A DNA stretch of 64,000 nt from an uncultured bacterium (GTDB lineage: Bacteria; Babelota; Babeliae; Babelales; Babelaceae), in contig CAWKFG010000001.1 in the NCBI GenBank assembly GCA_963848965.1, positions 480,001 to 544,000 on the forward strand. Reading direction: 5' to 3'. The notes below the pieces were generated by a model. The model searched no databases. It had not been told where the DNA came from and saw only the letters and a list, made by a program, of their open reading frames with translations. The position numbers were made by a program, and so were the translations under genes. Each line of letters starts with the position of its first letter. The first letter of the stretch is position 1. This document shows, one piece after another, positions 38,772-41,623 of this stretch.

Positions 38772-39299
38772 ATGAGATATATTATTGCACTATTGGCTCA
38801 GGAACCAGATCCATTTATTCAAGAGGCTCAAAGACAGTTTTCAGATATAGCACAAGGTTACTTATTATCAAATAGCAGCTTGCCTCACATAACTCTTGCT
38901 CAATTTGATTTAGACGATGAACAAAAGCTGGAGGAAGTTTGGCGAGAACTTTTTGCTTGCGTTAAAGACATTCCTCAACCAAGATTTACAGGTATCGGCT
39001 TTAGCAAAAAGGCTCAAGGCCTATGGGGGACTTCGCTCTCTGTAGCAAGAGAGCCAGAGCTTGTTAACCTTCATCTTATGGTTATTGATGTACTGAAAAA
39101 TCATGGCATACGATCAATTACTCATTCAAAAGAATTATACCGCCCTCATGTAACACTTGCTCGTGTTGCAGAACCAAAACTCTCTCAGTTTAATGACAGT
39201 ATATTAGATCCAGCTCTCTTTATTCTTGCACTTGGACAAGGTGATGAAAATGGTCAGTATTTGAATACAGTCTTTCAGAAGGATAAAATGTTCACATAG
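38772..39299 (+). CDS. 2H phosphoesterase, copy 2
   Basis: PHITL/PHVTL; about three-quarters identical to 36431-36964 by manual alignment. Confidence 0.85.
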   Translation: MRYIIALLAQEPDPFIQEAQRQFSDIAQGYLLSNSSLPHITLAQFDLDDEQKLEEVWRELFACVKDIPQPRFTGIGFSKKAQGLWGTSLSVAREPELVNLHLMVIDVLKNHGIRSITHSKELYRPHVTLARVAEPKLSQFNDSILDPALFILALGQGDENGQYLNTVFQKDKMFT

Positions 39300-39518
39300 C
39301 TGCTCTGTAAAATGTCCTTTTGTTAAAGCTTCTTTTGCTAATTCAAGCACTTCAAAACAGGGTGATAACGAAAATGTTATAATAAATAGCTTAATTTCTT
39401 ATCTTGTAAAAACTATAGTGCGTTTGATGATTAATTTCTTTTTGTTACCATAATAGTATTACTTAACTACTTTTAGTAAAAGAGGCAAAGCCCCTTTTTG
39501 GCAGCCAAGAGGATATTT

Positions 39519-40706
39519 ATGAAACTAAGCGTAATGCTATTACTGTTAATTGTTACTTTTTCTTATGCTATACAAGCTACTTTAAGCAATGGTAGTTTAC
39601 TTATAAAAGGACAGAAAAAAGTTCTTTTGCTCGGCGATAGACATCCTTTGCCAGATCCTTTTATAACTGCATCTGATCACGTTGAAATTATAAAGCTTGA
39701 TATGGCTCATTCAACAGTGCTTCTTGATTGGGTTAAAAAAATAGCATTATCTATATCTGCTTGTATGCTTGTAGAAGCAAGTAAACATCGACCAGAAACA
39801 ATTGATGTAGAAATGCTTGAGAAGGCTCCATTTATTCCTCTTGGGCTTTTGTTTCCGTATATGGCAAAGATAGCTAACTATCATTTAAATAAATTATCAT
39901 TTGTATATGCAGATATACGAACAGACCCTATGAGTGATTGTGTCAGATTTGTACATGATTTAATTACTAGTTCGACACAGGATACTATAAGCTTTCAAGC
40001 AATTAAACACAGGTACTTACATGAAAGAAGATTTACTATTACAGCAGAGGAATTCTATAATCATCTTGAAAATCAGGTAAAGATGTTTGTCAAGGCAGAG
40101 GATATGCAACCATTGCTTGATAAACTACTAATAGAACTTGAGCGGGGTAAAAAGCTTTTAGGTTCTTTGAATCAAACGGAGCCTTTAATTGAAGCTCTTT
40201 ATAAAGAAACTTGTTGTGCAGAAACTTCTGTACCAGGTATAAATATGCCATGTTCTATTTGGATTAATTGTTTTGATGGATTATTTGCGAGCGTTAGCTT
40301 TATTAATGAACTTATCTTAGCGTTGCAGCGTGTTGATACTTGTATTGTTATTGCAGGAAGCCAACATATAATCGATCTGCATTCTTTTCTGCTTGATCAG
40401 AGATTTCATGAGCAAAAAAGTTTTGGGAATTTTCATTCGTTGCGAGATTTAGCTCAAAATAGTGATTATAAAGCTGTAAATAGTTTAAATCGAGCATCCC
40501 TTAAATCCTTAACTTCTGGTGAATTATTGGCTCATTTTTTACAGGATGTAGAATCTTTTCTTTTGGCTCAAGAGGTAGTTAAAAGTTGTGCTATATGCAG
40601 TAAAGAAAGCACTAAGTATTGTAGTACATGCAAAAAAATATATTACTGCTCAGCCGAGTGTCAAAAAAAACACTGGCCAGAACATAAAAAAGTATGCAAA
40701 AAATGA
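39519..40706 (+). CDS. Secreted protein with C-terminal MYND zinc finger
   Basis: Signal peptide; CAIC..CSTC..YYCSAECQKKHWPEHKKVC. Confidence 0.88.
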   Translation: MKLSVMLLLLIVTFSYAIQATLSNGSLLIKGQKKVLLLGDRHPLPDPFITASDHVEIIKLDMAHSTVLLDWVKKIALSISACMLVEASKHRPETIDVEMLEKAPFIPLGLLFPYMAKIANYHLNKLSFVYADIRTDPMSDCVRFVHDLITSSTQDTISFQAIKHRYLHERRFTITAEEFYNHLENQVKMFVKAEDMQPLLDKLLIELERGKKLLGSLNQTEPLIEALYKETCCAETSVPGINMPCSIWINCFDGLFASVSFINELILALQRVDTCIVIAGSQHIIDLHSFLLDQRFHEQKSFGNFHSLRDLAQNSDYKAVNSLNRASLKSLTSGELLAHFLQDVESFLLAQEVVKSCAICSKESTKYCSTCKKIYYCSAECQKKHWPEHKKVCKK

Positions 40707-40932
40707 AATGATTAAACTTCTTTTAAAAGCAGGAGCTGATGCACGGTCTAACGGTGGTCAAAGTACTTTATCAGGAACAGTATGCATGTAATAAGGGTAT
40801 AAAAATGCTTCTTGAAAAAGAGCTGATCCAAAAGTACCAAATGCATTTATAACCCAACATCTCTTAAGATCTGCTGATGGTTCAGTTGATCAAAGATTAG
40901 TAGAGCTTCTTAAAGAATATGGTGCAAACTAA
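40702..40932 (+). pseudogene. Ankyrin-repeat gene remnant
   Basis: Fragments EMIKLLLKAGAD, IKMLLEK, ADP, LVELLKEYGAN* broken by stops and frameshifts. Confidence 0.65.
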
Positions 40933-41032
40933 CACTTACGAGAGAAAGTGCTCAGAAAGCCAACAAGTTTACTGGTTCTTATGAATGATCGTCACTGGTC
41001 GCAGAAGCTCTCGTTTCTGCTATACTACTTAA

Positions 41033-41178
41033 TAATAAAGAGTTGGATGTCGACTCTTAGGCTAGGCAGTGTAAGACTAACCTTATTAGCGACTGCTGCT
41101 TGAATCCAAAAATAGCGATTTATCGCCATCCCTATGACTTTAGTCATAAGGGAGTATGCCAATTACGATAAAAAGAAG
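41033..41178 (+). ncRNA. Putative orphan IS200/IS605 TnpB-type omega/reRNA scaffold plus guide
   Basis: Ordered elements: 5' hairpin, GGCAGT-GTAAGAC-hairpin-ACTGCT, TTGAA, CCCTATGAC-TTTA-GTCATAAGGG, AGTATGCCAA; TATACT at 41021. Confidence 0.6.
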
Positions 41179-41206
41179 AGAGCATGTATTATGCGCGCTC
41201 TCTTCT
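41174..41206. terminator. Terminator hairpin overlapping the doxX 3' end
   Basis: AGAAGAGAGC...GCTCTCTTCT, with an A run on the left. Confidence 0.6.
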
Positions 41207-41623
41207 ACATCTTCTACAAAAATCCCATAAAGCATATTTACCAGGACCGCCTACAATAATAGCAAGAGCAGAAATTATAAGACTAAGCGGATATTCAAAT
41301 CCCTTATTTTGAGAAAAAAAGCCATGTTTCCAATGAATAAGCGTAACTGCTCCTATCATAACAGGAATAACAAGCAATGCTCCCACTTCTGCTGCTACGC
41401 CAAGTAAAAGAAGTATTCCGCCAGTAAGCTCAGAAAATGCAGCTAAATAAGCAAGCCATTCAGGTACACCGTATTTAGCAATCCATGTTACAAAACCTTC
41501 AAGACCGGTACCACCAAAGAGACCTAAAACTTTTTGGCCACCATGAGCAATAAAAATGATACCGAGTGCTACTCGTATGATAAACAGCGCCCATTGTGCT
41601 CTTTCATTACTCGTCATATGCAT
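41189..41623 (-). CDS. DoxX family membrane protein
   Basis: RVALGIIFIAHGGQK, ELTGG, GFEYPL, GPGKYAL. Confidence 0.92.
   Translation of the reverse strand: MHMTSNERAQWALFIIRVALGIIFIAHGGQKVLGLFGGTGLEGFVTWIAKYGVPEWLAYLAAFSELTGGILLLLGVAAEVGALLVIPVMIGAVTLIHWKHGFFSQNKGFEYPLSLIISALAIIVGGPGKYALWDFCRRCRRERA

Follow-up and report, generated by a model that had tools for sequence, protein, structure and literature searches.

The window analysed here, 64,000 nucleotides in length, corresponds to C1:480001-544000 of the genome of an uncultured bacterium of the Babelaceae (assembly GCA_963848965.1, contig CAWKFG010000001.1), labelled G000 in what follows. Positions 40940-41162 of this window hold a 223-bp element without any gene, which is in all likelihood a miniature derivative of a tnpB-type insertion sequence (IS) of the IS200/IS605 family, similar to the elements called PATEs, and most likely an immobile relic that no longer has a function. 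The element is recognised by its homology to other copies, by a structure that shows covariation, by the linkage of its homologues to tnpB and by its boundaries. Its right half, 41034-41162, is on sequence grounds a genuine TnpB omega-RNA (reRNA) scaffold lying at an IS200/IS605 right end. The reading as a functionless relic follows from the fact that neither a Y1 transposase, nor a cognate TnpB, nor a target for the guide was found in G000, a 1.73-Mb assembly in 5 contigs that is 88.7% complete.

A covariance model (R1) was made with no other input than the window sequence 41034-41164 and the fold predicted for it. Of 149 other related genomes, 5 contain matches along the full length of R1, and one of these (G053) holds seven copies. 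In G053 the match at L102 1501-1610 (- strand; record CAWFXL010000001.1) overlaps the last ~70 nt of an intact open reading frame (ORF) of 380 aa (L102 1540-2682, - strand), the product of which has OrfB_IS605 and TNB domains and reaches 248.5 bits with the NCBIfam model guided_TnpB. Protein similarity to this TnpB was used to fetch 28 tnpB loci, two of which belong to the G053 record. Cyanobacteria, Selenomonadales and other Firmicutes account for most of them, with 43-54% identity, and Anabaena azotica, Microcoleus vaginatus and Selenomonas ruminantium are among the sources. When 26 of these loci (43-94% identity) were searched with the models, R1 matched 22 at E <= 1, always at the 3' end of tnpB. 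The second model (R2), built from 25 family sequences, none of them from the window, matched all 26 at E <= 0.01, each again at the tnpB 3' end. With R2 the window reaches 89.3 bits (E 1.5e-17) over model positions 1-116 of 116, more than any of the eight tnpB-linked sequences outside the training set (31.3-69.5 bits), and the nearest members of the family have 67-69% nucleotide identity to the window. The scaffold family of these Babeliales-like elements occurs in cyanobacteria and Firmicutes as well.

The helices of the scaffold are supported by covariation. Among the 25 family sequences, with the window excluded, 93.6% of the cells are paired as against 31-49% when the partners are slid, both sides change in 22 of the 39 pairs, and on each of the five measures all 500 shuffles stay below the observed value. 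Helices 1, 4 and 6 also emerge from an independent RNAalifold prediction. The initial annotation, which covered positions 41021-41206, had called a TnpB omega-RNA scaffold at an IS200/IS605 right end, and the homology found with R1 and R2, together with this covariation, supports that call.

On the + strand the scaffold (41034-41164) comprises a first helix at 41038-41058, a second at 41060-41102 with an inner stem at 41075-41090, a terminal one at 41129-41153, and a closing stem that joins 41060-62 with 41158-60. All the strings that the initial annotation had listed are present where it had placed them. They include the hairpin AAGAGTTG/CGACTCTT (41038-41058), the series GGCAGTG..GTAAGAC..CTAA/TTAG..ACTGCTGC (41063-41102), TTGAA, the small hairpin GCGA/TCGC (GCGA-UUUA-UCGC, 4 bp, 41115-41126), the terminal hairpin CCCTATGAC-TTTA-GTCATAAGGG (41129-41153) and AGTATGCCAA, which ends at 41162 and forms the right end of the element. 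The marks of such scaffolds that had been named there (GTAAGAC, a TGTCAA end and a terminal hairpin) proved to be real traits of the recovered family, since in the alignment of 25 sequences GT(A/C/T)AGAC is found in 23, the TGTCAA end likewise in 23, and the terminal hairpin is present. The window departs from the family in two places. The 16-nt stretch 41111-41126, which includes the 4-bp hairpin, shows as an insertion in the R2 alignment and is absent from the family model; the paired columns of this extra hairpin have letters in only 2 of the 25 sequences, and locus L125 has a long insertion at the same spot. In addition, the loop of the first stem reads GAUGU in the window as against a GGGCAU-type loop in the family.

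In Rfam no model matched the window at the gathering score, and at E <= 10 only chance-level matches appeared. A control search at the 3' ends of the four tnpB genes of G000 itself also gave nothing significant; Rfam is thus equally blind to the resident tnpB 3' ends and its silence is uninformative on omega-RNA identity. The covariance search proposed in the initial annotation fails with Rfam and succeeds with the custom models, which link the window to tnpB 3' ends. At the 3' end of one of the resident tnpB genes (L005 1394-1502, - strand) a weak Rfam match was seen to the Enterococcus small RNA (sRNA) Ref70 (26.6 bits, E 0.57), and Ref70 may itself be an omega-RNA. The case shows that sequence alone can be enough to recognise a TnpB guide-RNA scaffold and that a covariance model made from a single sequence can tie an orphan to its family where Rfam has no model; the 37-sequence alignment (A6) could serve as the seed of an RNA family for use in annotation.

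The limits of the element were set by comparison of copies. Its left end is abutted by TTAC (40936-40939, + strand), the target or transposon-adjacent motif (TAM), and TTAC precedes the start of homology in all three copies in G000 and in the five delimited copies of relatives (L096, L098, L100, L101 and L102); in the copy of another relative, G003, its place is taken by TTGC. At the other side the similarity among copies stops immediately after ..GTATG(T/C)CAA (after ..GTATGTCAA), and 10 nt separate the foot of the right-end hairpin from this point. The last four nucleotides of the element are CCAA (41159-41162, + strand) and not TCAA, as the initial annotation had correctly remarked; most relatives have TCAA. 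Since the G003 copy has the same ending (..GCATGCCAA), CCAA is a trait of a subfamily and not the result of random decay. No terminal inverted repeat was seen in the sequence of the element.

The left-end plus internal module (40940-41036, + strand) is 75% identical over ~100 nt to C1:388760-388859 and is conserved in G003. Within it the motif TGCTCAGAAAGCC (40949-40961, + strand) agrees at 12 of 13 positions with TGCGCAGAAAGCC, which in an element of G161, itself gene-less, is found 8 nt after TTAC. It is also related to TGCGCTGGGAAGGCC, a motif of the left ends in G053 and G047, and to the left end of the tnpB-bearing L102, and a 17/17 match to G003 overlaps it. The last ~40 nt of the module may be a relic of tnpB codons: the region of TGcTATACT aligns, without statistical support, with GACTATAATGC (codons D-Y-N-A) of the G053 tnpB, and the TATACT stretch may accordingly be descended from D-Y-N-A-A codons. 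Inside the scaffold lies what remains of the tnpB tail, STLRLGSVRLTLLATAA with its stop codon (41050-41103, + strand; the 16 codons at 41050-41097). This relic, STLRLGSVRLTLLATA, is identical at 10 of 16 residues to STLGVGDVSPTLLAIA, residues 364-379 of the intact G053 TnpB. The ORFs of the element (51, 45 and 41 aa) have no match in Pfam and no genome-wide protein match, tblastn indicated no protein-coding potential in the stretch, and the statement of the initial annotation that the window contains neither tnpA nor tnpB was confirmed.

Within G000 only the first ~100 nt (40936-41036) recur, at C1:388760-388859 and again on the duplicate contig C3, and a 36-nt piece of the left end recurs at C4:758379-758414. 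The 3' halves of the window element and of the C1:388760 paralogue are unrelated; the paralogue keeps the left module and has no recognisable scaffold. The inventory of the genome is hence one complete copy, one left module without scaffold and one 36-nt left-end fragment. The initial annotation had suggested a search for other scaffold copies; R2 matches the window copy alone in the whole assembly.

Gene-less derivatives built on the same design, that is, left end, last tnpB codons and scaffold, were found in G053, G047, G161 and G003. In G053 (loci L095 and L100-L103) we observed one intact tnpB element and at least three gene-less derivatives. These derivatives and one in G047 (L098) have a common deletion junction that joins the left end to the last ~15 tnpB codons, and the 3' flank is different in each. 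The G053 set is a small family of omega-RNA mini-elements beside their nuclease. A closer relative of the whole window element, sharing both its left module and its CCAA end, is present in G003, a one-contig genome that is 95% complete and has no match to a TnpB of the G053 type. It occupies a non-syntenic site, between a repressor-like gene with helix-turn-helix (HTH) and peptidase S24 domains and the gene of ribosomal protein S6, and is more degraded (52.5 bits, GTAAGAC lost). These results show that Babeliales-like (Dependentiae-type) genomes harbour IS elements of the tnpB type and gene-less derivatives of them, and the orphan copies in G000 and G003, for which no cognate nuclease was found, provide a data point on the persistence of relics and no new mechanism.

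BLAST-type DNA searches with the 227-nt stretch gave no homologue in 40 and then 261 genomes of the phylum, nor in plasmids and phages. They returned chance matches of 17-55 nt, except for one 17-nt match in G003 that later proved to be real. An exact-pattern scan of the genome contig collection gave 0 matches for the left end. The pattern of the right-end hairpin gave 51, near the rough chance estimate for 17 fixed bases, and these had no similarity beyond the hairpin and a few flanking bases (longest alignment, 39 nt).

Gene-less elements with omega-RNAs of this kind have already been described. The sections of Meers et al. 2023 (PMC10055086) that concern Geobacillus stearothermophilus report PATE-like gene-less IS200/IS605 elements, and state that PATEs often encode omega-RNAs that need TnpB in trans. 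The window element resembles them in that it is gene-less and has the right end and a probable left end of a tnpB-type IS, abuts a 4-nt target (TTAC), lacks inverted terminal repeats, and has as its right half a complete omega-RNA scaffold followed by a flank in guide position. It differs in its host, a small-genome Babeliales-like bacterium, and in its terminal tetranucleotide, CCAA and not TCAA. Moreover, the genomes of the published cases also hold compatible TnpB and TnpA, whereas no cognate TnpB and no Y1 transposase were found in G000. The combination that marks a PATE, with subterminal hairpins at both ends and TnpA acting in trans, was not found for the window element.

Among the closest known elements are the one at L102 in G053 and its cyanobacterial and Firmicutes relatives, which belong to the same scaffold family by covariance model, have the same order of helices and share GTAAGAC, the ..GAGTATG(T/C)CAA end and the TTAC left flank. 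The window element differs from these by the extra 16-nt insertion with its 4-bp hairpin and by having no tnpB attached. IS608 of Helicobacter pylori, another member of the IS200/IS605 family, reportedly uses TTAC as its insertion target and ends in TCAA at the right. On these features the likeness consists in the TTAC target and a (T/C)CAA end a few bases past a subterminal hairpin; the window element differs in having no tnpA and no left-end hairpin like the one at its right end. The role of IS608 in defining the TAM/TEM motifs is mentioned in PMC10055086.

The window element lies 3' of TTAC, and its left end resembles the left ends of homologous elements from other Babeliales-like genomes. 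The right half (41034-41162) is the scaffold, which in full-length relatives extends over the last ~70 nt of tnpB and reaches the right end of the transposon. If the published behaviour of such elements applies, a Y1 TnpA encoded elsewhere would have moved them in single-stranded form. Guided by an RNA made of the scaffold and 16 nt of 3' flank, a cognate TnpB would then cut the donor site left empty (TTAC plus flank), and recombination following the cut would restore the element. In the window the guide position given by the architecture of the family is occupied by the 16-nt flank TTACGATAAAAAGAAG (41163-41178, + strand), and joining the two flanks of the element would give a hypothetical donor joint, TTAC+TTACGATAAAAAGAAG. 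The window copy is most likely a relic in which the fold happens to be still intact.

Several observations weigh against this interpretation. Repeats often remain unassembled, and with an assembly in 5 contigs that is 88.7% complete the cognate tnpB or tnpA could sit in the missing part. The good preservation of the scaffold (89.3 bits) would also fit continued selection. The pair counts use a structure derived from the window, and the alignments had been made to fit that structure. The counts therefore lean toward it, and the 35 of 35 pairs found in the window are so by construction. At the left end the homology to G161 and G053 consists of a 13-nt motif whose distance from TTAC is similar, pairwise comparisons of the left module with tnpB coding sequence or with the G053 left ends are not significant (p 0.2-0.8), and no hairpin resembling that of the right end is evident. 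The element is flanked by a 13-nt imperfect direct repeat, TTACGAGAGAAAG (40936-48) and TTACGATAAAAAG (41163-75), 11/13 identical, which is not expected from an IS200/IS605 insertion; the 3' flank likewise begins with TTAC. Lastly, G000 holds only one complete and two partial copies, so that the miniature form is only presumed to have been mobile. As a separate observation, the flank of another resident tnpB element (L005) reads TTATTTACGAGAC.

The alternative that survives best, though unlikely, is that a full-length tnpB insertion decayed in place by deletion and mutation and never moved as a miniature. In its favour are the relic of the last 16 tnpB codons, with its 10 identities, and the internal module, which may align with the ..THDRDYNAA.. 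codons of the G053 tnpB. These tail codons, however, belong to the scaffold in every member of the family and are thus uninformative on decay. Furthermore, the left module of ~100 nt recurs with 75% identity at C1:388760-388859, where the putative junction is present as well, and G003 shows the same layout at a non-syntenic site, which suggests that the short form itself has spread.

The initial annotation had proposed a stand-alone guide RNA acting in trans. In this quite unlikely reading the window would encode a functional orphan guide RNA, transcribed from a promoter of its own and loading a TnpB, or a nuclease-dead TnpB-like repressor, encoded elsewhere, with a target in trans. The scaffold is indeed intact and its score is within the range of tnpB-linked members, and TGcTATACT (41018-41026, + strand) lies ~12 nt upstream of the first stem. 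PMC10691335, moreover, states that omega-RNAs standing alone are present in genomes that have effector loci, and that they serve compatible effectors in trans. G000 has four full-length tnpB genes, and in the product of one of them (C4:613685-614902) Gly is aligned where the others have the RuvC-II Glu. The tnpB-like genes that the initial annotation suggested looking for do therefore exist, yet all four belong to other clades than the cognate type. By alignment their products are 21-30% identical to it, and the best tblastn matches of the G053 TnpB in G000, which concern two of them, are 28-31% identical. The 3' ends of these genes have no sequence similarity to the stretch, and R2 matched neither them nor the 3' ends of tnpB fragments, even with the filters off. 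The inference of a trans-acting guide finds no partner among these genes. The Pfam model Y1_Tnp had no match in G000 at E <= 0.01.

The guide itself points in the same direction. The 16-nt flank TTACGATAAAAAGAAG has no TTAC-flanked match in the genome with up to 3 mismatches, so that the search for a target envisaged in the initial annotation came back empty for the genome. One match with 1 mismatch is not flanked by TTAC, and matches are no more numerous than those of shuffled 16-mers. The flank also runs into the stem of the terminator of the neighbouring DoxX gene, the 5' arm of which it overlaps by 5 nt. The promoter attributed to the RNA does not hold up: the -10-like hexamer TATACT (41021-41026, + strand) with its upstream TG stands alone, with no acceptable -35 box, and a consensus scan of the + strand called no promoter there. 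The terminator claimed for it is the G+C-rich hairpin 41174-41206, which lies outside the element. It is followed by a T-run on the - strand only and has the DoxX stop codon (41189-41191) in its loop, and is for these reasons the intrinsic terminator of the convergent DoxX gene, oriented for the opposite strand. Neither a sigma-70 promoter with -35 and -10 boxes nor a terminator U-run on the RNA strand, as would be looked for in an sRNA gene, was found at the stretch. A look through sequencing runs gave no RNA run containing the stretch, and four DNA runs contained 6-8% of the sampled words. Finally, the orphan of the same subfamily in G003 is visibly decaying (52.5 bits, GTAAGAC lost).

The nuclease-dead repressors considered in this reading are exemplified by TldR proteins, described in part of 10.64898/2026.09.22.753285 as TnpB-like repressors with guide RNAs. 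A scaffold of the TnpB type such as that of the window could in principle act in a similar way, without cleavage of DNA. Compared with the TldR guides as presented there, the window scaffold has no adjacent tnpB-like gene and no guide target was found for it, and the TnpBs of G000 keep the first and third Asp of RuvC. We also noted that the 405-aa TnpB of C4:613685-614902 (L009 1375-2592, - strand), in which Gly-Asp is aligned to the RuvC-II Glu of four others (..VVGDVT.. as against ..IEDFN..), keeps these first and third Asp residues; the nuclease is perhaps inactive, unless the alignment is in error at RuvC-II.

A very unlikely variant is that the scaffold has been under selection since the nuclease was lost, and that the orphans of the CCAA subfamily, which are present in two genera (G000 and G003), are transcribed and act either through a distant resident TnpB, possibly the one with Gly at RuvC-II, or independently of protein. 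Were this so, a protein-independent role would mean a regulatory RNA in an obligate intracellular bacterium. Returning to the gene-less relic, the initial annotation had offered an inert IS scar as its second choice. This is nearer to the evidence and needs to be refined, as the stretch appears to be a complete gene-less miniature element with both of its ends.

The stability of the fold contributes little to the argument. For 41036-41155 the + strand has z = -3.3 and the - strand z = -4.2, and none of 200 shuffles was equally stable. A z of -3.3 or lower on the + strand was also obtained for 7% of 123 random intergenic windows of 120 nt, and for 4% of them on both strands. Its stability is notable, yet not extreme against the background of the genome, and it is homology plus covariation that is decisive for the stretch being more than chance. 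That the stretch is an unrelated lineage-specific sRNA, or a cluster of terminator hairpins 3' of DoxX on the - strand, is hardly credible: the - strand folds into the hairpins as well (z = -4.2), T-rich tracts follow two of them on the - strand and about 4-7% of the intergenic windows of G000 are equally structured, but the full-length homology to tnpB 3' ends is strand-specific, extends to 26 of 26 loci and comes with covariation, and two stems have G-U pairs on the + strand that are A-C mismatches on the - strand.

Other identities were considered and dropped. No tRNA or transfer-messenger RNA (tmRNA) was found in the stretch. The 6S RNA model of Rfam had no match anywhere in G000, and the fold of the stretch is not rod-like. 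The signal recognition particle (SRP) RNA is located elsewhere in G000. The upstream 100-nt module had been regarded as a promoter cassette shared by different sRNAs, and this idea was abandoned, the module being the left part of the IS-derived element. A GCTATAC at C4:758462 was rejected as a full copy of the module; it encodes G-I-A of the C-terminus of a conserved protein. The notion of an ankyrin 3' flank was also discarded, since the ends of paralogous ankyrin genes have no more than the stop codon in common.

Some further observations concern the places where pieces of the element recur. Contig C3 of G000 (9474 bp) is, over its full length, a second copy of C1:387180-396639 with 99.5% identity, which is probably a strain variant or assembly redundancy rather than a true repeat. 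The 36-nt left-end fragment of C4 lies between the stop codon of the gene at C4:758416-759705 and a shared terminator. That gene (L022 1538-2827, - strand) encodes a large protein with the C-terminus ..ALGIAFKGK.., which presumably resembles the AAA-ATPase/PD-(D/E)XK type.

The element is flanked in the window by genes on both sides. The convergent DoxX gene occupies 41189-41623 on the - strand. Its closest relative, with 54% identity, is in a metagenome-assembled genome of Candidatus Babeliales, where the synteny comparison showed a different neighbourhood; a single scan of metagenomes for DoxX synteny gave only a 29% match. Upstream of the element, at 39498-40706, is a gene whose product has as its sole Pfam match a MYND zinc finger, a domain typical of eukaryotes. 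Immediately following this gene is an ankyrin-repeat pseudogene (40708-40932, + strand) with three in-frame stops; the C-terminus ..LVELLKEYGA is common to many ankyrin paralogues in G000. Two genes upstream of the element, at 38772-39299 on the + strand, a 175-aa protein of the 2'-5' RNA ligase/LigT superfamily is encoded.

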